NCBI RefSeq assembly: GCF_003790525.1
Contig: NZ_CP033635.1
DNA from: Escherichia coli
GTDB lineage: Bacteria; Pseudomonadota; Gammaproteobacteria; Enterobacterales; Enterobacteriaceae
Strand: one strand, 5' to 3'
DNA: 64,000 bases
The position numbers and the translations under genes are program-made. This document shows positions 1-12,749 of this stretch, in pieces (position 1 is the stretch's first letter; each line of letters opens with the position of its first letter). A model generated the notes under the pieces. It searched no databases. It saw only the letters and a list, made by a program, of their open reading frames with translations, and had not been told where the DNA came from.

Positions 1-1443
1 CCGAACATCGCTAACCGCAACAAAGGCGGGCGGCGCAAACCGAAAAAGAATTTTTTCAGCGACGAAGCCATCGAAAAGCTGGAGCAGATTTTCTTTGAGC
101 AGTCTTTCGACTATCAGTTGCACTGGTATCGCGCCGGGCTTGAGCACCGCATCCGCGATATCCTGAAATCCCGCCAGATTGGCGCAACGTTTTATTTTTC
201 CCGCGAGGCGCTGCTGCGTGCCCTGAAAACCGGTCATAACCAGATTTTTCTGTCGGCCAGTAAAACGCAGGCGTATGTGTTCCGCGAATACATCATCGCC
301 TTTGCCCGGCTGGTTGACGTTGACCTGACCGGTGACCCGATTGTCCTGGGCAATAACGGCGCAAAACTGATTTTTCTCGGCACCAACTCCAACACCGCGC
401 AGAGCCATAACGGCGACCTGTACGTCGACGAGATTTTCTGGATCCCGAATTTTCAGGTACTGCGTAAGGTGGCATCAGGTATGGCCTCACAGAGTCACCT
501 GCGCTCGACCTATTTCTCCACCCCGTCCACGCTGGCGCACGACGCCTACCCGTTCTGGTCGGGTGAACTGTTTAACCGGGGACGCGCCAGCGCCGCCGAA
601 CGCGTGGAAATCGACGTCAGTCATAACGCCCTTGCCGGTGGGCTTCTCTGTGCGGACGGCCAGTGGCGGCAGATTGTCACCATTGAGGACGCCCTGAAAG
701 GCGGCTGCACGCTGTTCGACATTGAGCAGCTCAAACGCGAAAACAGCGCCGACGATTTTAAAAACCTGTTCATGTGTGAATTTGTTGACGACAAGGCGTC
801 GGTATTCCCGTTCGAGGAGCTGCAACGCTGCATGGTCGACACGCTGGAAGAATGGGAAGACTATGCGCCGTTTGCCGCCAATCCGTTCGGCTCCCGCCCG
901 GTATGGATTGGTTACGACCCGTCACACCGTGGCGACAGCGCCGGATGCGTGGTGCTGGCACCGCCGGTGGTGGCCGGAGGTAAATTCAGAATACTTGAGC
1001 GTCACCAGTGGAAAGGCATGGACTTTGCCACTCAGGCGGAATCCATCCGCAAACTCACCGAAAAATACAACGTCGAATACATCGGAATTGATGCCACCGG
1101 CCTCGGTGTCGGCGTGTTCCAGCTCGTGCGCTCGTTCTATCCCGCCGCGCGCGATATCCGCTACACGCCGGAAATGAAAACCGCAATGGTGCTCAAGGCA
1201 AAAGACGTCATCCGCCGTGGCTGTCTGGAATATGACGTCAGCGCCACCGACATCACCAGCTCGTTCATGGCTATCCGCAAGACCATGACCAGCAGCGGAC
1301 GCAGCGCCACCTATGAGGCCAGCCGTAGCGAGGAAGCCAGCCACGCCGACCTCGCCTGGGCGACCATGCACGCCCTGTTAAATGAGCCACTCACCGCCGG
1401 TATCAGCACCCCGCTGACATCCACCATTCTGGAGTTTTACTGA
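1..1443 (+). CDS. Phage terminase ATPase (large) subunit, P2 gpP-like; 5' end outside window
   Basis: Frame is open from nt 1 (no stop before the listed 118 start); lies immediately upstream of a 344-aa portal with TGATG stop/start overlap at 1441-1445, as in the P2 P-Q operon. Confidence 0.8.
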   Translation, partial: PNIANRNKGGRRKPKKNFFSDEAIEKLEQIFFEQSFDYQLHWYRAGLEHRIRDILKSRQIGATFYFSREALLRALKTGHNQIFLSASKTQAYVFREYIIAFARLVDVDLTGDPIVLGNNGAKLIFLGTNSNTAQSHNGDLYVDEIFWIPNFQVLRKVASGMASQSHLRSTYFSTPSTLAHDAYPFWSGELFNRGRASAAERVEIDVSHNALAGGLLCADGQWRQIVTIEDALKGGCTLFDIEQLKRENSADDFKNLFMCEFVDDKASVFPFEELQRCMVDTLEEWEDYAPFAANPFGSRPVWIGYDPSHRGDSAGCVVLAPPVVAGGKFRILERHQWKGMDFATQAESIRKLTEKYNVEYIGIDATGLGVGVFQLVRSFYPAARDIRYTPEMKTAMVLKAKDVIRRGCLEYDVSATDITSSFMAIRKTMTSSGRSATYEASRSEEASHADLAWATMHALLNEPLTAGISTPLTSTILEFY

Positions 1444-2477
1444 TGAGCAAGAAAAAAGGGAAAACACCGCAACCTGCGGCAAAAAAAATGACCGCCAGCG
1501 CCCCGAAAATGGAGGCATTCACCTTTGGTGAGCCGGTGCCGGTACTCGACCGCCGTGACATTCTGGATTACGTCGAGTGCATCAGTAACGGCAGATGGTA
1601 TGAGCCACCAGTCAGCTTTACCGGTCTGGCAAAAAGCCTGCGTGCTGCCGTGCATCACAGCTCACCGATTTACGTCAAACGTAACATTCTGGCCTCAACG
1701 TTTATCCCACACCCGTGGCTTTCTCAGCAGGATTTCAGCCGCTTTGTGCTGGATTTTCTGGTATTCGGTAATGCGTTTCTGGAAAAGCGTTACAGCACCA
1801 CCGGTAAGGTCATCAGACTGGAAACCTCACCGGCAAAATATACCCGCCGTGGCGTGGAGGAGGATGTTTACTGGTGGGTGCCGTCCTTCAACGAGCCGAC
1901 ACCTTTCGCGCCCGGCTCCGTGTTTCACCTGCTGGAGCCGGATATTAATCAGGAGCTGTACGGTCTGCCGGAATATCTCAGCGCCCTTAACTCTGCCTGG
2001 CTGAATGAGTCGGCCACGCTGTTCCGCCGCAAGTATTACGAAAACGGCGCTCATGCCGGATATATCATGTACGTCACTGATGCCGTGCAGGATCGCAACG
2101 ATATCGAAATGCTTCGCGAAAACATGGTGAAGTCGAAAGGCCGCAACAACTTTAAAAACCTGTTTCTCTATGCCCCGCAGGGGAAAGCTGACGGCATTAA
2201 AATTATCCCGCTCAGTGAAGTGGCAACGAAGGACGATTTTTTTAATATCAAAAAAGCCAGCGCCGCTGACCTGCTGGACGCGCACCGCATCCCCTTTCAG
2301 TTGATGGGCGGCAAGCCGGAGAACGTCGGGTCGCTGGGTGATATTGAGAAAGTAGCAAAGGTCTTTGTCCGCAATGAGCTTATCCCGTTACAGGACAGGA
2401 TCCGCGAGATAAACGGCTGGCTCGGTCAGGAGGTCATCCGATTTAAAAACTACTCACTGGACACTGACAACGGCTGA
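1443..2477 (+). CDS. Phage portal protein, P2 gpQ-like (344 aa)
   Basis: Size identical to P2 Q; overlapping start with terminase gene; followed by terminator and cos. Confidence 0.8.
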   Translation: MSKKKGKTPQPAAKKMTASAPKMEAFTFGEPVPVLDRRDILDYVECISNGRWYEPPVSFTGLAKSLRAAVHHSSPIYVKRNILASTFIPHPWLSQQDFSRFVLDFLVFGNAFLEKRYSTTGKVIRLETSPAKYTRRGVEEDVYWWVPSFNEPTPFAPGSVFHLLEPDINQELYGLPEYLSALNSAWLNESATLFRRKYYENGAHAGYIMYVTDAVQDRNDIEMLRENMVKSKGRNNFKNLFLYAPQGKADGIKIIPLSEVATKDDFFNIKKASAADLLDAHRIPFQLMGGKPENVGSLGDIEKVAKVFVRNELIPLQDRIREINGWLGQEVIRFKNYSLDTDNG

Positions 2478-2482
2478 ACATC

Positions 2483-2505
2483 GCCGCCTGCGGGCGGCTT
2501 TTTTA
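2483..2505 (+). terminator. Rho-independent terminator after portal gene
   Basis: gccgcc-tgcg-ggcggc hairpin followed by a T-run. Confidence 0.5.
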
Positions 2506-2645
2506 CACCCCGTCATCACGCCCTCACACGTTCGCCACTGTACAAAACACCCCGCAGACACACCAACGCCCCGGCAGGCCGACTAAACGCCATCACGACG
2601 CGCTCAGACGCTGAAAAAATAAAATCAGCACCACCGCCAGCGCGC

Positions 2646-2664
2646 AGTGCTTTCCCCGCCTCGC
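2646..2664. other. Phage cos cohesive-end sequence (P2/186-type)
   Basis: gtgctttccccgcctcgcc is the reverse complement of GGCGAGGCGGGGAAAGCAC, which I recall as the 19-nt P2 cohesive end; position (just 3' of Q) is as expected. Confidence 0.55.
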
Positions 2665-2892
2665 CCGCCCGCTTCATGGGTCGGTTTTGATGCAATTCCA
2701 AAAGCCGTCCAAACTCTCTTAGGCTAAATGTCCAACGAGAAAATAGTTCTTTGAATGTGAATGCATTTTAATGCAGAGTTATGCCCAGCATTTTTGTACA
2801 CTTCGATGTATCAAATGCGCTGCAAACGATCAAATATGGATGTTTTATCAAGCATCCCCCAAAAGATATTTACATCATCCCATGAGGTTAAG

Positions 2893-3966
2893 ATGGATAA
2901 CAAAATCGTAGAAATTGAGACAAATAAGCTTGATTTTGACCCTAAAAACCCACGTTTCTTTCGTCTCAATGATGCCAGTAACGCTGCAACAGTCATTGAG
3001 GAAATGTTAGATGACGAAAGTGTCCACGATCTAATGCTATCAATCGGTCAGCAAGGTTACTTTCCTGGAGAACCTTTATTGGCAGTAAAAAGCAATGGAA
3101 ACTACATCGTGGTTGAGGGAAACAGACGCTTAGCTGCTGTAAAGTTGCTCAATGGAGATCTGCTTCCTCCAAAAAGAAAACTTAAAGGTGTGCAAGAAAT
3201 CATTGATGATACTACCAATAAACCTAAGAAGCTTCCCTGCATCATTTATGAAAACCGAGAGGATGTACTGAGATATATCGGTTATCGTCATATAACTGGG
3301 GTCAAAGAATGGGACTCATTATCTAAAGCCAAATACCTTAAAGAGTTATGTGATACTTTTTATTCACATGAGCCTAAAGAGATAGTATTAAAAAATCTGG
3401 CTCGTGAGATTGGGAGTAAACCACATTATGTTGCAACACTTCTCACTGCACTGAACTTATATGAAGTCGCGCATGACCATGAGTTTTTTAATTTACCCAT
3501 GAAGGCTTCTGACGTGGAATTTTCATATATAACCACAGCTTTGGGATATTCAAAAATCACAAACTGGTTAGGTCTACAGGATAAAAAGGATTTTTTAGAC
3601 CCAAATTTAAATGAAGAAAACCTTAAGCGTTTATTCTCTTGGTTTTTTGTGCCTGACCAACAAGGTAGAACCATCATCGGTGAGTCTCGAAGAATAAAAG
3701 ATATTGCAGCAGTGGTTGAGAAACCCGAAGCAATTGAAATTCTCATGAAAAGTTCAAACTTGGATGAAGCATATCTATATACCAGCGGAGAAAGAGAAGC
3801 ATTAGATAAAGCACTAAACGCAGCTAGTGTTAAATTAAGAGTAGTTTGGGATATGCTACTTAAAGCTAAAGAATTAACATTAGAGCATGAAGAGGCTGCA
3901 TCTGAAATTTTTGAGATGTCAAAAAATATTAGAAATCAGATCAGAAGCAAAAGGGAGGATGATTGA
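2893..3966 (+). CDS. ParB/Srx-like N-terminal-domain protein (hotspot cargo gene 1); ORF open from 2761, start 2893 preferred
   Basis: Motifs LDFDPKNPRFF and IVVEGNRRLAAVKL resemble the ParB PNPxQPR and GERRxRA boxes; GAGG 5 nt upstream of ATG 2893; region looks AT-rich. Confidence 0.7.
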   Translation: MDNKIVEIETNKLDFDPKNPRFFRLNDASNAATVIEEMLDDESVHDLMLSIGQQGYFPGEPLLAVKSNGNYIVVEGNRRLAAVKLLNGDLLPPKRKLKGVQEIIDDTTNKPKKLPCIIYENREDVLRYIGYRHITGVKEWDSLSKAKYLKELCDTFYSHEPKEIVLKNLAREIGSKPHYVATLLTALNLYEVAHDHEFFNLPMKASDVEFSYITTALGYSKITNWLGLQDKKDFLDPNLNEENLKRLFSWFFVPDQQGRTIIGESRRIKDIAAVVEKPEAIEILMKSSNLDEAYLYTSGEREALDKALNAASVKLRVVWDMLLKAKELTLEHEEAASEIFEMSKNIRNQIRSKREDD

Positions 3967-4996
3967 GATTATGATTACAAATCTTGATTCAATGCCTTCT
4001 AATGAGCCTTATTTATGGGCTGATTATATTGAGATATTGGCCTTAACTAATATCGACAGGTCATTCAGTCGAGGAGACCTATATAGCACACTGCAAGCTC
4101 AACCCGAAGCAGTACTAGCTGAAACAGATGAAGCAGAAGAAGAGGGCGTTTATGATGTTGATGATGAAAATGATACGCCTGTACGCAAGAGAACAAAACG
4201 AAGTGTTAGTCGAGCATATACTGACAGAAAGTGGAGCTATGCGATAGGCTTCATACGACAACGCATTGATTTATTTGGGGATAGTTACCCTTTTACTTTA
4301 TCAGAAGACAACGATACTGTAGAGTTACGTGATATATCAGAAAAGCCACTGGAACATTTAGAAAGACTATATTTAGCTTTACTAATCTGTGCTAACATAA
4401 AATATGTCAACATAATGAGCAGAAGAGAGATAACGCGCAGTTTTGAACTAATTAGTTTACCTATTTTTGAAAGCCTAATGCCTAGCGGTAGCATAATAAA
4501 AGCATGCTGGGCTTCTGGTGGTCAAGCGGCCCCTTACACTGGAACTCTATATAATAAATTTAAGAGTATTGCTTCCGATATCCGTTGCACAGCGAACTTC
4601 AAAGAACGAGATTTCAGTCGAGGAAATAGTGGTGACGGAGGCCTTGACATAATTGCCTGGCATCCAATGGGAGATCAACGAGATGCCATCCCTATTTCTT
4701 TTGTTCAGTGTGGCTGTTCTCAAGAAGAGTGGGAAGCGAAGCAGCTTGAGGCCTCACCTGCGATGCTCTACAGTAAATTCCCCGTAGCTCACCGATGGGC
4801 AACTTATTATTTCTTACCTCAAGATCTACGATGGATAGATGGTGAGTGGGCGCATAAAAATAAGTTAGGCGATGCTATTTTTGTTGATCGCCTAAGATTA
4901 ATCAATTTAACCAGAGCATCTGATAATATTGATCACAGTCAAAATATTAGCTATCTAGATATCATCCTTGATCCTTCCAGCGCGATCGCTGCTTAA
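3959..4996 (+). CDS. Hypothetical protein, possible PD-(D/E)xK-like nuclease core in C-terminal half (hotspot cargo gene 2)
   Basis: Start ATG 3959 overlaps gene 1 stop (ATGATTGA), alternative ATG 3971; GGAGG at 3954-3958; acidic then basic tract ETDEAEEEGVYDVDDENDTPVRKRTKR; GGLDIIAW ... EEWEAK fits a D...ExK spacing (weak). Confidence 0.6.
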   Translation: MIEIMITNLDSMPSNEPYLWADYIEILALTNIDRSFSRGDLYSTLQAQPEAVLAETDEAEEEGVYDVDDENDTPVRKRTKRSVSRAYTDRKWSYAIGFIRQRIDLFGDSYPFTLSEDNDTVELRDISEKPLEHLERLYLALLICANIKYVNIMSRREITRSFELISLPIFESLMPSGSIIKACWASGGQAAPYTGTLYNKFKSIASDIRCTANFKERDFSRGNSGDGGLDIIAWHPMGDQRDAIPISFVQCGCSQEEWEAKQLEASPAMLYSKFPVAHRWATYYFLPQDLRWIDGEWAHKNKLGDAIFVDRLRLINLTRASDNIDHSQNISYLDIILDPSSAIAA

Positions 4997-5931
4997 TCCC
5001 ATAAATCTGGAAGGTTTCTAGCAACCGCCTCAAACAATGGAGGCGGTACTGCATTACCTACCACAGTATATTTCATATTAATAGAAGCCCGTTCAGTTTC
5101 TGGGAAAATTAAATCCCCAAAACCTTGTAAAATAGCAGCCTCTCGATAGCTAAACCTACGAGCTGGTGCATCCGAAGTAAATTGCCACTTATCAGGTCCC
5201 AATTTTTCTAATGTTGGACTTATTGGATGTAGAGGCATATGTCTAGGATTTGCAACAATTGTTTTAGATATCTGATCCCAATCTTGCCTACGGTTTCGCG
5301 ATAGATAATACCAATGAAAATCGGCGTCATAAAACTCGCCAACAGGCCAAACAGGCATATGCCCAATAGCATCACGAATTGTGGAATATGGTGTCAAACC
5401 ATCACCATGTGTTGGTTTTGGAAATTTGTATGTAATACCGTAGTCCTTTCGTATTCCTACGATAAAGATTCGCTTCCTATCTTGGGATACCCCATAATGG
5501 GACGCATTCAGAATTTGCGAGCTTACTGTATAACCTGCTTCTTCGAAAACTTTGAATTGATCCTTTAATAAATGCTCAAAGTTACGCCTTACCATACCAG
5601 AGACATTCTCTACAATGAATGCTTTTGGCTTAATTTTACTCAAAGCACGGGCAAACTCTAAATATAGTGTATTAATCTTTCTATCTGCCTTCCTTGCCCC
5701 ACCTTGACTAAATCCTTGGCAAGGATAGCATCCGATGAGCAACTCAGCAGAAGGGAACGACTGGAGCCCTGAGATATCGCCCAAAATGTAGTCAGTTTCA
5801 GGATGGTTTTCTAAGTAAACGTCCCTTGCGTAAGGCAAAATATCATTTGCCATAAGCACATTGAAACCTGCGTTCAAAACTCCCGCATCAGAACCACCAC
5901 ATCCAGAAAAAAGTGAAACTACAGTTGGCAT
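4993..5931 (-). CDS. DNA (cytosine-5)-methyltransferase, short HaeIII/HhaI-size type (312 aa)
   Basis: Motif I FSGCGG, motif IV PCQGFS, motif VI ENV, motif VIII QDRKRIFIVG; AGGAGG-type RBS upstream of start; stop overlaps stop of gene 2 within TTAA at 4993-4996. Confidence 0.9.
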   Translation of the reverse strand: MPTVVSLFSGCGGSDAGVLNAGFNVLMANDILPYARDVYLENHPETDYILGDISGLQSFPSAELLIGCYPCQGFSQGGARKADRKINTLYLEFARALSKIKPKAFIVENVSGMVRRNFEHLLKDQFKVFEEAGYTVSSQILNASHYGVSQDRKRIFIVGIRKDYGITYKFPKPTHGDGLTPYSTIRDAIGHMPVWPVGEFYDADFHWYYLSRNRRQDWDQISKTIVANPRHMPLHPISPTLEKLGPDKWQFTSDAPARRFSYREAAILQGFGDLIFPETERASINMKYTVVGNAVPPPLFEAVARNLPDLWD

Positions 5932-6173
5932 TGACCCCTCCTAAAAACCGACCGCGTATTATAGCGAAACACCCCGTTGGGAAAAGCTAGATTTTGCCAA
6001 GTCTTGATATTCTCACGTTTTAGTAGTTGTGGCCATCTTTAACGAGAAAAAGATAAAATTGACTTCTCATTAATTTTCAATAGGTTTAATTGTAAGCTCA
6101 AACTAACGCCTCGCGACACTCGTTATTCAACCCCGCCAGCCCTGAAAACAAGTTTCACGACTGGCGGCGTTCT

Positions 6174-6392
6174 CTATCGTCTGCGTTGTGGTGGCGCAAC
6201 TCTGGACTGACCGATATGGTTAAACCGCCCGTAATTATCCCGGACTATTTCGGCACACCCGACCAGCTCATCGGGCGTCAGATTTTCGTTGACCATAATC
6301 CGCTGTAAACGCTGAACAATAGCCATCAGCTTGATATTTTTAGTTTTATGGTGCGGTATCTCGCCTGGTATTCTGTGCATTATCCAAGCCAC
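6174..6392 (-). CDS. Small hypothetical protein at cargo/replication-module boundary
   Basis: 72-aa ORF only; overlaps 3' end of ASCH gene; no recognisable motif. Confidence 0.3.
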   Translation of the reverse strand: MAWIMHRIPGEIPHHKTKNIKLMAIVQRLQRIMVNENLTPDELVGCAEIVRDNYGRFNHIGQSRVAPPQRRR

Positions 6393-6832
6393 CCGTTTTG
6401 CTGTGCACGCTCCATCTGTTCATCTGAATAGTTCCATGCTCCATCCGTGGCAACCATTGCCCCGCCAGACATCCCCGTCTCTGGTTCATACATAACAGCA
6501 AGGCCGAGCTGATGCATAATTTCATGATTAATTCTGAATACCAGGCCACGCTCACTAAGTTCTTTCCAGTTCACAATCTCATATGCGCCTGTATTAAGCA
6601 GCTCAATACTTAGCAAGACATAATCTTCCAGCCAGTCTGACAGGTCAGTAACATCTGTTATCCGGGCTTCAACATTTCGCCCCGTATACACACCCTGCAC
6701 CCATTCATACAAAATCAACGTGTCCCCGCGCTCATAATTACGGTCATTTTTCCGGAACTCTGCACGTTTCTTTCCTTCCAGCACAAGGTCGAAATATTTT
6801 GCGTGCAGCTTTACCTCGTGAATTTTTGCCAT
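6380..6832 (-). CDS. ASCH (PUA-like) domain protein at the P2 orf91 position
   Basis: N-terminal MAKIHEVKLHAKYFDLVLEGKKRAEFRKNDRNYERGDTLILYEW resembles ASCH; start ATG 6832 shares a base with the gene A stop (TAATG). Confidence 0.65.
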   Translation of the reverse strand: MAKIHEVKLHAKYFDLVLEGKKRAEFRKNDRNYERGDTLILYEWVQGVYTGRNVEARITDVTDLSDWLEDYVLLSIELLNTGAYEIVNWKELSERGLVFRINHEIMHQLGLAVMYEPETGMSGGAMVATDGAWNYSDEQMERAQQNGWLG

Positions 6833-9159
6833 TATGTCCACTCCATTACTGTTGAGAATCCCGGCCACTCATCAGCGACCGGATACGTGAATTTTTTCCC
6901 GTCATAATTTACGGTCGCGCCACGCGCCAGCGCCTCAAGCTCCCATCGCTGCGGCCTGATACCGTTCTGAGCAAGGTCAACGCGGATACGGGTAATTTGC
7001 GTTCGTTCCGACCGGGTCAGTCTGGCCGATGGCGCTATTTCATGTGGTTTTAACGGGCTTCCGTTTCTCTGCTGACGATTTGGTGTTCTCAGTTCGTGTT
7101 TTAATGCACCTCTGAGCGCCCTCACGACCTCTGGCTCATTCCATTCGATAACACCGTCATCAACCAGATTAAGCACGGCTGCGGCATGTTCATAAGGTGT
7201 GGGAGCCGGTAACGAAGTATCACTGCCGGTGAGCTTTCCACAGTTATTGACAGGACTCCGAGGCGCGGCGATGCCGCTTTTTAAAGTCAAAGGCTCAACG
7301 ACCGGAACTTTCGGCACAATGCGCCAGTCCGTCGTTCTGGTGATATGAATATGACGCGCGCCGAGATGCGGCGCGTAAATACCGACCACTCTCTCGACTT
7401 CTTCCTCGTACTCGTTAACGTCACTCGACGGGCTACGGGCAACCCTGACAGTCTGACAATCGCGCGGGACATTTGCCCCACCCTGCGCGCTGATATACAA
7501 CGCAAAATCACCACTGTCTGCGGCAGCGCGAGCAGCCTCGACGCGTTCGTCAAACTCATCAGCAATACTGACGCCGCGAGGTAATTTGCGTAGTTCACGG
7601 TAAGCCCCCATTGTCGGTAGGCCAACCGTTTTAAATTGCGGAATGCGCCACGTTGACGCCCATGCGGTAACAGCCGCGGCAGTGTCTTTCAGCGGCCTGC
7701 CGGTATCGTTATCGAGCTGACCATCCAGTGCATAGCCGTCGATGTTTTTTGAAATGTATTTCGCGATATACCCCGCAGCACCGCCCCGATTAAGGTGTTT
7801 TGCCTGAAAACGGTTTCGCGCGGCTCCTCTTTCGTCGCCATCCTCTTTGAGCGCATAGCGACGCATGATTTCGATAATCTGGTTACGCTGGCGCGAATTA
7901 CAAAAAAGCATCATATGCCAGTGCGGCGTTCCGTCGTGGTGTGGCTCGACGACACGCAAACCGTAGACCTGTAAATCATTATCCTTGAATGCCGTGCGCA
8001 TCAGGCTCCAGATACGGCAGAGATAACGCTGCGCATCCTTTGGATTAAATGCCTCATCGTTCCAGCCGTGATTAAGCTGCACGGTTTTACTTTCGCCTTT
8101 TCCTACCTGACGTGTCGGGTGATACTTTGACGGCGCGGTCAGCGTGATAAACATCCCCACATCACCCTCTGCAGCGGCGTAACGCTCAATACCGGCAATG
8201 GTGTTCATCAGCTCCATCCGGCGAATTTCAGGATTAGAAATACTGCCCATCACCTTACTGATAAGGTCGATGCGCTCGCCGGTTTCCCTGTTTTCAAGGT
8301 CACACGATTTAAGAAATTCCAGATTTGCCTGGCGGCGCGCACGCACATCACGAATGGCATGTTTACTGGCATAAGGTGAACGGTCTTTATTGACCTCCCC
8401 GACAGCAATCAGTAACGCCTCATGCCAGCGCATACGCTGGCCTTTAAGCTGTCTAATCCACCACTCATCGTTAAACAGGCGGGCAATGGCAGAATATGCC
8501 TGCCTCGTGGTCATCTGCCCTTTACGGTATTTTCTCCAGTACAGCGGGGAAATATTGAAAGCACGTGCAGCGCCAGCAACATGACCATACAGGTGAGCCT
8601 GCGCCTCATCCGTAAACAGCGATTCTTTTTCGCCATGGGCATCCACCCAGGCATCGCAGAGTTCCTCATACATCATGAAAAGCTGCGATGAGATACGGGC
8701 GGCAAACTTTTTCAGCTCCTTGTCATTCATTCCCGGCAGGCGCGCATAGTGGTCACGCTCTGCCAGAAACAGCAACGACGCGTCGGTGTTCATTTCATGG
8801 CGCTGATTCACACGCTCAATGCGCGGCCATAAACGACGCTGAAAAGTGGATGTGAGGAAATAAAACCCGTGCACCGGGCTTTTATTGCGCCGGATGTAGT
8901 CATAGCGTGAAGTAAACAGCGAGCGCAAAAAGTAAGGCAGGCGGTTAATCGTGGATAAAACACCTTGCACCTGACGCATCTCATCACGTGTAAGGGGTCT
9001 TTCGCGCCCGACGGCCTCGCGTGGCGCGTTCCATGCATAAGCACCGGTAAACATCTTACCGGTGCCTGCGGCAAATGCTGACGGAGGGACAAAACGCCCG
9101 GAGGCTTTAACGGCCATATGAGCCAAAAGCCTCTGAACAACGCCTGCTGAGTTGCTCAA
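6832..9159 (-). CDS. Rolling-circle replication initiation endonuclease, P2 gpA-like (HUH superfamily)
   Basis: HUH motif PHWHMMLF and YxxxY motif GYIAKYISK; 775 aa against 761 aa for P2 A; position in early operon. Confidence 0.85.
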   Translation of the reverse strand: MSNSAGVVQRLLAHMAVKASGRFVPPSAFAAGTGKMFTGAYAWNAPREAVGRERPLTRDEMRQVQGVLSTINRLPYFLRSLFTSRYDYIRRNKSPVHGFYFLTSTFQRRLWPRIERVNQRHEMNTDASLLFLAERDHYARLPGMNDKELKKFAARISSQLFMMYEELCDAWVDAHGEKESLFTDEAQAHLYGHVAGAARAFNISPLYWRKYRKGQMTTRQAYSAIARLFNDEWWIRQLKGQRMRWHEALLIAVGEVNKDRSPYASKHAIRDVRARRQANLEFLKSCDLENRETGERIDLISKVMGSISNPEIRRMELMNTIAGIERYAAAEGDVGMFITLTAPSKYHPTRQVGKGESKTVQLNHGWNDEAFNPKDAQRYLCRIWSLMRTAFKDNDLQVYGLRVVEPHHDGTPHWHMMLFCNSRQRNQIIEIMRRYALKEDGDERGAARNRFQAKHLNRGGAAGYIAKYISKNIDGYALDGQLDNDTGRPLKDTAAAVTAWASTWRIPQFKTVGLPTMGAYRELRKLPRGVSIADEFDERVEAARAAADSGDFALYISAQGGANVPRDCQTVRVARSPSSDVNEYEEEVERVVGIYAPHLGARHIHITRTTDWRIVPKVPVVEPLTLKSGIAAPRSPVNNCGKLTGSDTSLPAPTPYEHAAAVLNLVDDGVIEWNEPEVVRALRGALKHELRTPNRQQRNGSPLKPHEIAPSARLTRSERTQITRIRVDLAQNGIRPQRWELEALARGATVNYDGKKFTYPVADEWPGFSTVMEWT

Positions 9160-9382
9160 CCTGCGCGTTTAAATCAGCAAAAGACTTTGCGCTTCCGGTC
9201 AGAATATCGTGATGCATCAGGCCGGAAACGAGCTGGCTTAATTTCGGGTAATAACCAACCACCGCCAGCCATTCCTGACCGGCGTTTTTACCGCTTTCAG
9301 CTCTCTTTTTCTCGTGGAGAATAAACTGAAAGCTGTCACTGGTAACGACATAACGTTCGCCAATTTCAATACGAATACTCAT
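9107..9382 (-). CDS. Phage early-operon hypothetical protein (P2 orf83 position)
   Basis: ORF and synteny only. Confidence 0.5.
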   Translation of the reverse strand: MSIRIEIGERYVVTSDSFQFILHEKKRAESGKNAGQEWLAVVGYYPKLSQLVSGLMHHDILTGSAKSFADLNAQVEQLSRRCSEAFGSYGR

Positions 9383-9603
9383 GCCGTTCTCCGGTAATGT
9401 TTGTTTTTTGCTTCAAAGACTGACTGACAGGAAACACAACGCGTGGCTGACGGATAAGCCGCACGACGGGCAGCAGGTATTGGCGCGTCACACTCTTCGC
9501 AAACCAGCGCAGAAGCACCGCAATGTTTTACCCTTGCCGCGTTAATCTGGCGCTCCAGTAATTCAGCCTGTTGTTCCTGAATAAAATCTACGTTGTCCGG
9601 CAT
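9379..9603 (-). CDS. TraR/DksA-family C4 zinc-finger protein (P2 orf82 position)
   Basis: CxxC ... CxxC pattern (CEECD ... CVSC) in a 74-aa protein. Confidence 0.7.
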   Translation of the reverse strand: MPDNVDFIQEQQAELLERQINAARVKHCGASALVCEECDAPIPAARRAAYPSATRCVSCQSVFEAKNKHYRRTA

Positions 9604-9908
9604 TACCAGTTCCTTTTGTCGTTAAGGTTTTTAAATTCATCAGCGCAATAGCTGGCGATTTCTGTCGTTAATTTCGTCAGTTCATCCACGGAGGAGATTT
9701 GCTTGTGAAACACAGCGCGTTTAACAAGTAAATTGACCACATCAGACAGGAGGTTTAATTCGTTCTGATAAATCGCGATAACAGACTCAGTTATTTCGCG
9801 TTTTTCTTTATCAAGACCAAGTTGAATAAGAGACAAATCGCCATTTTTCATAACGGCGATTTTTAGGGCGTTATTCAGTAATACAACTGAACGAGAACAG
9901 GACATCAA
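9603..9908 (-). CDS. Phage hypothetical protein (orf81 position)
   Basis: ORF, overlapping stop/start chain in operon. Confidence 0.45.
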
Positions 9909-10129
9909 AGCACCTCCCCGCGAGACAATCCGATATTGTGAAATTTTTCCGACTCCTGACTGAGCAGCTCGACTATCTCCACGCGGGATAACTCCGCCTT
10001 TGTGATGTGGCGAATCATGGCGTCAAGATGAGAAGAAAAGCGCGTCGCTGCGTCGGCCTGTGCTTCGGTTCTGGCCTGTTGCAGCAGTAATGCGTATTTA
10101 CCGCACTGATTTTCAGAAACTGTATGCAT
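9905..10129 (-). CDS. Phage hypothetical protein (orf80 position)
   Basis: ORF, operon position. Confidence 0.45.
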
Positions 10130-10192
10130 GACTTTCTCCAGGCAAAAAGAAGCCCCGCACGATTAAGTGCGTTAAAAACTCTGGTTAATTAC

Positions 10193-10693
10193 TTAATGCA
10201 GATATTGCTCTGGTTTTACCGACGTCAGAATTGTCGGTGCATACTCAAACAGGCTGAATAATTCACGTAATGCACGGAATAAAGCATCACGCCAGTAACA
10301 TGATTCTTCATTAATTCGCCAGTATGGCTGGTTGAATTCTTTTTCAGTCAGTCGTGCGTGCATAAATAAAGTGCGACGCTGACTGACTGTTAAAAAACTA
10401 ATATATGCATACTCACTTGCGCCAACCTGACGGCGTTTTGAGAATGCGCCACGCAATTCATCAATTGCACAAACCAGTCGTTCACGTTCGACGTCGTTCA
10501 TTTCTTCAAAACGCATCGTTGCGTGACGCTGTTTTAACTGTGCATGAAAGCAAACCGTTAGCCGTTCGCGCTCCATCATCTGATTATAATAATCACATGT
10601 ATCCTGCCAGCGAGGGACGGCAAGATGCTTGCCAATTATCCGGCGCATAGCTGCTGGCTGTTTTTCAACGAGATTAAGCGTCATCACTGTCAT
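10193..10693 (-). CDS. Phage replication protein, P2 gpB-like (166 aa)
   Basis: Same length as P2 B and same position between cox/orf78 and A. Confidence 0.6.
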   Translation of the reverse strand: MTVMTLNLVEKQPAAMRRIIGKHLAVPRWQDTCDYYNQMMERERLTVCFHAQLKQRHATMRFEEMNDVERERLVCAIDELRGAFSKRRQVGASEYAYISFLTVSQRRTLFMHARLTEKEFNQPYWRINEESCYWRDALFRALRELFSLFEYAPTILTSVKPEQYLH

Positions 10694-10887
10694 TTCCAGC
10701 CCCTCCGGCTTTTCAGAAAGGTCAGAGCCTTTTTTAACGGACTCTGTTTTTTGGTGCGGATAATGATTCCCTTACGCCCCTTACCGTGGGTGATGGTGAA
10801 GTCAATCGCCCTGGGGCTTTCGTTACGCAGTAACTGAGCAATACAACGCGGTTCACTCATAATCACAACCCCATCCACAAAAGCCAT
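10690..10887 (-). CDS. Small phage protein (P2 orf78 position)
   Basis: 65-aa ORF coupled to B. Confidence 0.4.
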   Translation of the reverse strand: MAFVDGVVIMSEPRCIAQLLRNESPRAIDFTITHGKGRKGIIIRTKKQSPLKKALTFLKSRRGWK

Positions 10888-11135
10888 GCATCACGCTGTT
10901 CAACTGGTCGGTTATAAAACGCCTCTCGTACAGCGCGATTAAACTCTGGAATGAAAACCCACTTCTCACCGACACGAGCGTTCGGCTTACTTGGATCACG
11001 AAGCTCAATAACTGGCAACTTATTCTCTTTTACCATCTTGACTACAGCCGTTTCTGGCTTACCAAGTAACTCTGCAAACTTAACCGTATGTACCGCATCA
11101 ATCGGGTACTGAATCACATAGTCATTGACTTCCAT
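10863..11135 (-). CDS. Cox-like excisionase / early-promoter regulator
   Basis: 90 aa against 91 aa for P2 Cox; first gene of early operon, divergent from C-int. Confidence 0.6.
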   Translation of the reverse strand: MEVNDYVIQYPIDAVHTVKFAELLGKPETAVVKMVKENKLPVIELRDPSKPNARVGEKWVFIPEFNRAVREAFYNRPVEQRDAWLLWMGL

Positions 11136-11287
11136 TGATTAGCCCTTTTTGCTTTCGTGTTACCCTTATTAGATCCAGTCCCTTCTAGGTCGCACCTGTC
11201 CTTTCTAGGGACTGGCTAACACACTCAAAAGGTCACCAATACACAACCTTTTGACGGGAATATAAGTCACCAATAGGTTACTGTCAA

Positions 11288-11581
11288 ATGCAGACATTCG
11301 AAAAACTGAAAGCGATTAGGAAAGCAGAAGGCTTAACACAGGCGAAATTCAGCGAAATTAGCGGGATAGCTCTAGGAACAGTCAAAAATTACGAAAGTGG
11401 GCATAAAGACCCTGGTCTCAGCATCGTTATGCGAGTCACAAATACGCCTTTATTTAAAAAATATACGCTCTGGTTAATGACTGGTGATACGTCACCACAA
11501 GCTGGTCAGATCGCGCCGGCTCTCGCACACATTGGGCAAAAACCAACAGAATCAGACCACTCCGAAAAACAGACTGGTTAA
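11288..11581 (+). CDS. Immunity repressor, P2 C-like (HTH)
   Basis: 97 aa; HTH-like segment LTQAKFSEISGIALGTVKNYESG; motif QAGQIAPALAH resembles my recollection of P2 C; upstream of int on same strand. Confidence 0.7.
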   Translation: MQTFEKLKAIRKAEGLTQAKFSEISGIALGTVKNYESGHKDPGLSIVMRVTNTPLFKKYTLWLMTGDTSPQAGQIAPALAHIGQKPTESDHSEKQTG

Positions 11582-11650
11582 CACTCTATAAACATTACAT
11601 TTTCACCATTTGTTACCAAGATGGTGAATACAGCGTCAGAGGGCTTTCTT

Positions 11651-12631
11651 ATGTCAATTAAGAAGCTCGATGATGGACGCTATGAAGTGGACATTAGACC
11701 TCGCGGTCGCGACGGAAAACGCATCCGCAGGAAATTTGAAAGAAAAGCTGAGGCTGTAGCATTTGAGCGATACACAATCGCCTACGCCAGCCAGAAAGAA
11801 TGGGCAGGTCAGCGAGCAGATCGCAGAACTTTGAGTGAGTTGCTGAACATCTGGTGGAAATATCACGGGCAAAACCACGAGCATGGAACAAAAGAGTTTA
11901 ATCATCTGCTCAAAACCATCAGCGGCATAGGTGATATACCAGTGAGCCGGATGAGCAAAAGAGCTTTGATGGATTATCGTTCCATGCGACTACGTGATGG
12001 TATCAGTGCCGCAACGATAAACCGTGACATGTACCGATTATCCGGCATGTTCACAAAATTAATTCAATTGGATGAATTTTCCGGGCAACACCCAATTCAC
12101 GGACTGCCGCCACTGGCGGAGGCCAACCCTGAAATGACGTTCCTGGAAAAAGCAGAAATCGAAAAACTGTTAAATGTTTTGGATGGTGATGACTTACTTG
12201 TCGCACTTTTATGTCTGAGCACTGGAGGAAGATGGACGGAAGTTGCCACGCTAAAACCAGCACAGATTACAAATTGCAGGGTTACCTTCCTGAAAACCAA
12301 AAACGGTAAAAAGCGAACCGTGCCGATTTCTGAGGAACTGGAGAAAAAAGTTAAAGAGGAGGCCAGCGCTAAATTATTCAAAGTTGATTATGAGAAGTTT
12401 TGCGGGATTTTACGCAGAGTGAAGCCAGATATACCACCCAATCAGGCAACCCACATCCTGCGGCATACATTCGCAAGCCATTTCATGATGAATGGGGGCA
12501 ATATAATCGCACTGCAACAGATTCTGGGACATGCGAGCATTCAGCAGACGATGGCCTATGCGCACCTTGCGCCTGACTACCTGCAAAATGCCGTCGCGCT
12601 GAATCCTCTAAAAGGCGGAGTGACGTTATAA
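11651..12631 (+). CDS. Tyrosine integrase, P2 Int-like (ORF open from 11621)
   Basis: C-terminal HILRHTFASHFMMNGGNIIALQQILGHASIQQTMAYAHL tyrosine-recombinase signature; N-terminus MSIKKLDDGRYEVDIRP resembles P2 Int. Confidence 0.9.
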   Translation: MSIKKLDDGRYEVDIRPRGRDGKRIRRKFERKAEAVAFERYTIAYASQKEWAGQRADRRTLSELLNIWWKYHGQNHEHGTKEFNHLLKTISGIGDIPVSRMSKRALMDYRSMRLRDGISAATINRDMYRLSGMFTKLIQLDEFSGQHPIHGLPPLAEANPEMTFLEKAEIEKLLNVLDGDDLLVALLCLSTGGRWTEVATLKPAQITNCRVTFLKTKNGKKRTVPISEELEKKVKEEASAKLFKVDYEKFCGILRRVKPDIPPNQATHILRHTFASHFMMNGGNIIALQQILGHASIQQTMAYAHLAPDYLQNAVALNPLKGGVTL

Positions 12632-12749
12632 ATTTCCCTTCTGAGTGTCCACATAGTGTCCACACTCTCAGAACTTTGTAGCCCTTCCAGTCCCTTATAG
12701 GTTTTCTTAAGTTACTGTTTTCTTACGGAAACCGATGTAAGTGATTGAT

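Follow-up and report, generated by a model that had tools for sequence, protein, structure and literature searches.

In this study, we characterized a three-gene cassette in a 64,000-nucleotide stretch of Escherichia coli DNA (NCBI RefSeq assembly GCF_003790525.1, contig NZ_CP033635.1; the window hereafter means this whole stretch). The genes encode a ParB-fold protein (gene 1), a protein with a predicted restriction-endonuclease fold (gene 2) and a C5-cytosine DNA methyltransferase (the methylase), and together they probably form a modification-based module for distinguishing self from non-self, akin to restriction-modification (R-M), that is carried as cargo in the tin/old hotspot of a P2-like prophage. 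By analogy with characterized systems, the best-supported reading is that the cassette would follow the DndI/SspE design, split over two proteins and built on a PD-(D/E)XK fold, and would also be a relative of PD-lambda-5, while falling outside both families. Its components are as follows.

2893-3966, + strand: gene 1 (Wphi gp98), 357 amino acids (aa), ParB/Srx fold
3971-4996, + strand: gene 2 (Wphi gp96), 341 aa, predicted winged helix and PD-(D/E)XK domain
4993-4996: TTAA shared by the stop codons of gene 2 (+) and the methylase (-)
4993-5931, - strand: C5-cytosine DNA methyltransferase (Wphi mth), 312 aa, matching PF00145, TIGR00675 and M.HaeIII

The gene 1-gene 2 pair adjoins DNA-modification modules in diverse bacteria

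Relatives were gathered by a profile scan for gene 2 with one genome per species, which yielded 44 loci (numbered with the prefix L), followed by open reading frame (ORF) calling and profile searches. The loci span Proteobacteria, Campylobacterota, Bacteroidota, Acidobacteriota, Chloroflexota, Armatimonadota, Planctomycetota and Negativicutes. Gene 1 lies directly 5' of gene 2 in every locus that has an intact gene 2 and upstream sequence, and an identified DNA-modification module adjoins the pair in 41 of the 44 species-level loci.

25 loci: core HaeIII-like 5-methylcytosine (m5C) methylase, 61-84% identical to that of the window, by the pair
5 loci: another C5 methylase by the pair
9 loci: dnd phosphorothioation genes by the pair
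2 loci: PD-lambda-5 A and Dam-like B genes directly upstream of the pair
1 locus: only a weak N4/N6-methylase-like neighbour
2 loci: not judgeable (in one, the contig ends just past gene 2; in the other, it starts inside gene 1 and no modification gene lies downstream)

Among the dnd-type loci, the pair is next to the dnd modification genes in L040, L042, L043, L044, L046, L047 and L050, mostly convergent with dndBCDE, and it lies directly downstream of dndH both in L039 (1018-7951), where it overlaps the end of dndH, and in L044 (30-12667), where it faces dndEDCB. DndB, DndC, DndD and DndE of L050 exceed the NCBIfam cut-offs. A DndI-like DUF262/DUF1524 gene is immediately 5' of the pair in L045 and L047, and because the two co-occur there, the pair is not a simple replacement for DndI. 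This dnd linkage is limited to relatives whose tblastn identity to gene 2 is 24-28%. The idea that the dnd-type loci share a third conserved gene, 5' of gene 1, was considered and discarded, the 243-aa (L044) and 249-aa (L050) neighbours being unrelated. In two uncultured Bacteroidales/Bacteroidetes loci (L048, 3707-7870; L049, 216-4379), a PD-lambda-5-like A gene and a PD-lambda-5_B methylase gene (E-value 1e-108) precede the pair in the same orientation; here, two ParB-fold effectors appear to share one methylase.

The linkage also holds when the search starts from the methylase, for which the census covered all phage records and three bacterial clusters. Within 50,697 phage records, a methylase at least 60% identical occurs in 12, exactly the 12 that carry genes 1 and 2, namely Wphi, a Peduovirus record, the vB_EcoM-12474 phages, Yersinia HQ103 and Pseudomonas D14A. 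All three enterobacterial methylase clusters sampled (76-85% identity) sit in the P2 hotspot with the pair, one of them on hundreds of contigs, and the linkage extends to non-prophage chromosomal loci of distant phyla.

Some relatives carry further genes at the same place. Following the pair on the opposite strand in Burkholderiales L006 (5915-10589) and L023 (8101-12414) are a Type IIG-like restriction-methylase protein of about 1040 aa and a more distant C5 methylase (48-49% identical). A gene for a vsr mismatch endonuclease lies directly 3' of gene 2 in L006, and vsr fragments lie beside the methylase in L007 and L011.

Genes 1 and 2 switch lineage together while the methylase stays similar

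Phage vB_EcoM-12474II shares the architecture of the cassette, with a methylase that is 98% identical in protein and 93% in DNA, a gene 1 that is 32% identical and a gene 2 that is 25% identical; DNA similarity to the cassette starts exactly at the methylase stop codon. An identity matrix of 11 loci revealed two deep gene 1-gene 2 lineages in enterobacterial P2 hotspots, about 33% / about 27% identical between lineages (gene 1 / gene 2), and genes 1 and 2 always switch lineage together. The methylases are 76-98% identical whichever pair lineage they accompany, and about 70% identical to those of Pseudomonas, Xanthomonadales, Burkholderiales and Methylococcales. Among 32 distinct cassette methylases, the recognition domain is conserved as much as the catalytic core, which argues for one specificity shared by all of them. 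Since the pair lineages diverge under a methylase whose recognition domain is conserved, the effector pair would appear to diversify while the mark stays constant.

The methylase is intact and converges on gene 2 without a gap

The preliminary description of this DNA had reported an intact methylase whose stop codon overlaps that of its partner, and both observations hold. The core motifs LFSGCGG, YPCQGFS, VENV, QDRKRIFIVG and GNAVPPP are all present; PF00145 matches residues 3-307, end to end (E-value 5.5e-61; motifs I, IV, VI, VIII and X), and TIGR00675 scores 185.6 bits against a cut-off of 100.65. M.HaeIII (1dct), which recognizes GGCC, aligns with residues 4-307 (E-value 1.6e-48), recognition domain included, and the alignment takes in the SRNR...W...T..A..R...LHP segment of that domain. 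The target is thus possibly HaeIII-like, GGCC. Counts of GGCC, CCGG, GCGC, GGNCC and CCWGG sites in the cassette and the prophage part of the window were uninformative for specificity; CCGG is absent from the cassette against 4.1 expected, numbers too low to interpret. The best PADLOC match of the methylase is DruM of Druantia type II (DruM2, E-value 1e-110) and, because of this, one methylase family seems to serve at least two kinds of defence system. The cassette itself is not Druantia type II: its methylase is flanked by genes 1 and 2 and P2 backbone genes, with no DruE, DruF or DruG beside it.

The stop codon of gene 2 (TAA, 4994-4996) and that of the methylase (the reverse complement of 4993-4995) overlap in one TTAA, which leaves the convergent genes no space for an intervening terminator, and a terminator scan found no terminator-like structure at this junction. 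Of 31 distinct relatives whose methylase is convergent, 14 have the same 4-bp YTAR overlap and 11 more a gap of 0-7 bp, and a short or overlapping junction is kept across gene 2 identities from 29% to 100%. The tail-to-tail junction is a conserved trait of the family, beyond chance. It implies overlapping convergent transcripts, which may carry a regulatory meaning. A junction of this kind, free of a terminator, would keep methylase and effector coupled both genetically and transcriptionally.

Gene 1 carries ParB-type NTP-binding motifs and gene 2 a predicted nuclease fold

We placed the start of gene 1 at 2893, later than the longest ORF, in agreement with RefSeq, the Rousset table and homologues of 357-360 aa. 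The protein comprises an N-terminal domain of a nucleoside triphosphate (NTP)-binding type, a helical middle region and two long C-terminal helices. The motifs FDPxNPRF and EGNRRLAA are kept, with NPR and GNRR invariant, and correspond to Box I (NPR) and Box II (G-x-R-R) of the ParB/KorB/Srx fold; the ParB-CTPase fold, in a broad sense, fits. PADLOC PD-Lambda-5_A matches the N-terminal 160 aa or so with E-values down to 3e-24, these profile matches ending at about position 160-220, and hhalign relates gene 1 to a PD-lambda-5 A-like protein over 144 columns (E-value 6.5e-8). Family searches matched HEPN to neither of the two proteins, and matched neither DUF262 nor SspE to gene 1, which has EGNRR.

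Gene 2 starts at 3971, behind GGGAGGA and five bases past the gene 1 stop, again later than the longest ORF; RefSeq chooses the alternative start at 3959. A high-confidence structure model has an N-terminal winged helix and a C-terminal PD-(D/E)XK restriction-endonuclease-like fold, and homologues conserve the constellation D...Q.G...K..E. Searches of sequence families (Pfam, NCBIfam, PADLOC, PDB sequences) with gene 2 returned nothing, so that only the predicted fold is informative. That gene 2 is the split-off C-terminus of PD-lambda-5 A was considered and set aside, since hhalign against the C-terminal half of a PD-lambda-5 A-like protein found no relation. Gene 2 also carries an insertion at about aa 45-80 (window 4103-4210, AETDEAEEEGVYDVDDENDTPVRKRTKRSVSR) that is of low complexity, acidic then basic, and modelled with low confidence; it is absent from most of the homologues of about 305 aa, and a few unrelated lineages have insertions at that site.

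The cassette occupies a P2 defence hotspot and recurs in E. coli genomes

The three genes fill the cos-proximal slot between the portal gene Q and the replication gene A of the P2-like prophage. In P2 this slot holds tin and old, and two studies describe it as an anti-phage hotspot (Rousset 2022, Vassallo 2022). GC content is 37-42% over 2800-5800, the cassette, against 52-60% in the flanks, and because of this low value we take the cassette to be cargo.

The 3.4-kb cassette is 99.9-100% identical to gp98-gp96-mth of phage Wphi and to a record named Peduovirus P2. Of 5426 complete E. coli genomes, 103 carry it with at least 99% identity, and 36 further genomes in that set match over the methylase only, at 90-95% identity. 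Plasmids yielded no close methylase and a single distant gene 2 match; since they are essentially without it, the system is not plasmid-borne. In three complete E. coli genomes the cassette is interrupted by insertion sequences (IS), namely IS5 within gene 2 (L053, L055) and IS2 upstream of gene 1 (L054). The methylase is intact in all three and the portal gene is truncated, the cassette persisting in a prophage remnant. Such a bias would be expected of a costly effector, although three cases are anecdotal.

Relation to known systems

Rousset 2022 includes this same cassette, cloned from E. coli ATCC 9637 as pFR107 and labelled 'RM-like'; all three pFR107 protein sequences in Table S2B are identical to those of the window. 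The text and tables of that study give no fold, mechanism or range beyond E. coli. Our literature searches found no paper describing a three-gene system of a ParB-like protein, a nuclease-fold protein and a methylase, and no name for one; the pair is not described in broad surveys of the Dnd machinery and of the ParB-CTPase fold, and no methylome or restriction description of E. coli W turned up.

PD-lambda-5, a ParB/HEPN protein with a D12 methylase, is a validated broad defence that was called a compacted prophage version of an R-M plus abortive infection (RM+Abi) system, and its cloning required a host deleted for the mrr region (Vassallo 2022). Like it, the cassette is compact, of prophage type, and joins a ParB-N-domain protein to a methylase, the N-terminal 155-160 aa or so of gene 1 being homologous to PD-lambda-5 A. 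PD-lambda-5 consists of two genes, however, its A protein having a weakly predicted HEPN-like C-terminus and its B protein being a D12 N6-adenine methylase, whereas the effector of the cassette is split, its second protein has a predicted restriction-endonuclease fold and its methylase is of the C5 type. The ParB N-domain is thus present in the cassette, and the HEPN C-terminal half and the D12 methylase are both lacking.

DndI combines a ParB-like DUF262 NTPase with an HNH nuclease in a fusion protein and is encoded downstream of dndH; it nicks phosphorothioate-free DNA, and modified DNA stimulates its ATPase and releases it (DndI paper). The cassette shares with DndI and SspE the combination of an NTPase-type protein of the ParB superfamily, a nuclease (predicted here) and a DNA-modification module, and in distant relatives the gene 1-gene 2 pair stands where dndI would be, 3' of dndH and facing dndBCDE. 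DndI and SspE are single polypeptides with DGQQR and HNH that read phosphorothioate, while the cassette has two proteins, EGNRR, a PD-(D/E)XK fold and an m5C methylase. Neither a DGQQR/DUF262-HNH fusion nor dnd or ssp genes were found beside the cassette in the window.

With Type II R-M systems of the M.HaeIII family (HaeIII, BspRI), the cassette has in common a methylase similar over its full length and convergent genes. Unlike these systems, it shows no similarity to a known HaeIII-type endonuclease and always includes a ParB-fold partner, whose gene accompanies gene 2 without exception and varies along with it, which sets the cassette apart from the classical two-component design. Since the defining features fail in each case, we assign the cassette to none of PD-lambda-5, DndI/SspE and classical Type II.

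A model for the cassette and the alternatives to it

In the R-M-like reading that we favour, the methylase would place m5C at a HaeIII-like site, possibly GGCC, in the DNA of host and prophage, and genes 1 and 2 would form a two-protein effector. Gene 1 would act as an NTP-binding switch of the ParB/Srx fold with its own DNA-binding and dimerization regions, and gene 2 as a winged-helix DNA reader joined to a PD-(D/E)XK nuclease. On the pattern of DndI and SspE, the NTPase would make the nuclease engage or let go according to whether the mark is recognized; incoming unmarked DNA would suffer a nick or a cut, and self DNA bearing the mark would be left alone. Our comparison establishes gene order, predicted folds, motifs, co-occurrence and co-variation, from which the activity and specificity of the methylase, the nuclease and NTPase activities, the complex of genes 1 and 2 and the direction of mark sensing are inferred. 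The suggestion in the preliminary description that the methylase protects the host from the ParB-like protein and its partner fits best with our comparison, in which the pair is inseparable and co-varying and the methylase interchangeable.

Four observations weigh against this model. First, in Rousset 2022, pFR107 is listed among the 'additional tested systems' of Table S2B and not among the validated ones; the assay used eight phages, a K-12 MG1655 host and native promoters, and the main text names three other P2 systems as active. Second, neither the cassette nor the prophage part shows avoidance of GGCC. Third, the canonical (D/E)xK triplet is absent from the third core strand of gene 2, and its catalytic residues are for this reason assigned by analogy. 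Fourth, two very different pair lineages accompany nearly the same methylase, which would be unusual if the effector reads a specific sequence. MG1655 has both McrBC and Mrr, and McrBC restricts HaeIII-type m5C methylation. We suggest that this test, the only published one of the exact cassette, may have failed because it was compromised by an m5C methylase in a McrBC+/Mrr+ host.

A broader and more tentative proposal, which we consider possible and still short of probable, is that the pair is a portable two-protein restriction head in which a ParB-fold NTP switch licenses the nuclease wherever the mark is missing, its lineages having been re-tuned to m5C, N6-methyladenine or phosphorothioate. 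Gene 1 might then be a DNA-sliding clamp like ParB and KorB that loads on or scans DNA.

Direct restriction has an unlikely competitor in abortive infection or addiction, by which genes 1 and 2 would be a toxin that attacks the cell's own DNA once methylation lapses, upon phage takeover or prophage loss, with post-segregational killing or abortive infection as the main role. The RM+Abi description of PD-lambda-5 (Vassallo 2022), the survival of the cassette in decayed prophages whose portal gene is truncated, and the IS insertions on the effector side with the methylase spared all favour such a role. However, the effector has a DNase-type fold, unlike the HEPN RNase of PD-lambda-5, and unmodified phage DNA is the direct target of DndI, the occupant of that slot in dnd loci; our data do not separate direct restriction from abortive infection or addiction.

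We also find it improbable that the cassette is a classical Type II R-M system, with gene 2 alone as a sequence-specific endonuclease and gene 1 as a controller-like regulator or DNA-binding accessory. Gene 1 is present in every checkable locus and co-varies with gene 2, and it is a 357-aa ParB-fold protein with NTP-binding motifs rather than a small helix-turn-helix controller. The pair also partners dnd and Dam-like modules, and gene 2 lineages only 26% identical to each other that accompany 98% identical methylases are hard to fit to a co-evolving sequence-specific enzyme. These observations have to be set against the convergent R and M genes, the predicted restriction-endonuclease fold of gene 2 and the HaeIII-like methylase, all of which a Type II system would share. 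The earlier proposal that gene 2 is the cognate endonuclease is retained in part: the modelled fold and the tight linkage to the methylase agree with it, but because genes 1 and 2 are inseparable and co-varying while the methylase is interchangeable, this is not a classical one-enzyme Type II system.

It is very unlikely that the methylase is a phage anti-restriction enzyme for self-protection, a chance neighbour of two unrelated hotspot genes. Orphan methylases are common in phages, this family is far better conserved than genes 1 and 2, and methylase and effector have been reassorted, as such a reading would expect. Against it stand the strict two-way co-occurrence, which includes chromosomal non-prophage loci of distant phyla, the conserved zero-distance junction, and the other modification modules that the pair takes where the methylase is absent. 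The preliminary description had raised the orphan possibility and pointed to a methylase found without genes 1 and 2 in most relatives as the telling pattern; we looked for that pattern and did not see it, the pair accompanying the methylase in 12 of 12 phage records and 3 of 3 bacterial clusters.

Least credible of all is that gene 1 is a prophage ParB-type partition or silencing protein and that genes 1 and 2 serve maintenance or gene regulation rather than conflict, as the ParB/KorB fold and the plasmid-partition genes in about one quarter of P2-like hotspots (Rousset 2022) might suggest, given that parA is absent from the window and from related loci, that TIGR00180 scores gene 1 at 29.9 bits, far under its cut-off of 58.45, and that the partner gene 2 has a nuclease fold and the pair, in defence settings on chromosomes, keeps company with methylases and dnd genes.

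Our comparison ties together three things that had been described separately, namely the 'RM-like' hotspot cargo, PD-lambda-5 and DndI/SspE. In Rousset 2022, the arrangement 'DNA_methylase + hypothetical + ParBc' appears in Table S5A and is lumped into system #2, a family that accounts for 1136 of 18,150 P2-hotspot occurrences in E. coli; the cassette thus belongs to the second commonest P2-hotspot system family of this species, yet has no name. A fixed pair of a ParB-fold and a restriction-fold protein plugs into m5C, Dam-like or dnd modules, which makes the cassette directly testable. If gene 1 is an NTP switch, as analogy suggests, nucleotide switches of the ParB fold would extend to methylation-based restriction. 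Were the portable-head proposal true, the pair would represent a class of NTP-gated restriction enzymes built on the ParB fold and not on helicase or AAA+ motors, and a common, unrecognized defence of Enterobacteriaceae.

Other features of the prophage

The P2-like (Peduovirus) prophage takes up the first 12.6 kb of the window, terminase gene P included, and frames the cassette as follows.

1443-2477: portal gene Q
2700-2892, + strand: non-coding leader 5' of gene 1, the presumed promoter region of a gene 1-gene 2 operon
6832-9159: replication gene A, preceded by an orf91/DUF3850-like gene
11621-12631: integrase

The leader forms the left margin of the low-GC cargo, just past the cos-proximal region. 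No promoter-like match was found on the + strand of 2700-2892, and matches across the whole scanned region were not above chance. By the cos-proximal edge, immediately 3' of portal gene Q, is a strong terminator-like hairpin (2483-2498, GCCGCCTGCGGGCGGC) followed by a T run. GATC is scarce in the prophage part (1-12700), with 19 sites seen against about 47 expected from a first-order Markov model with resampling of dinucleotide frequencies. In other P2-like prophages a D12 (Dam-like) methylase gene lies by replication gene A, away from the hotspot (L003, 9512-10921; L004/L005, 9494-10354), and in L003 a PAPS-reductase-like gene is also found there.

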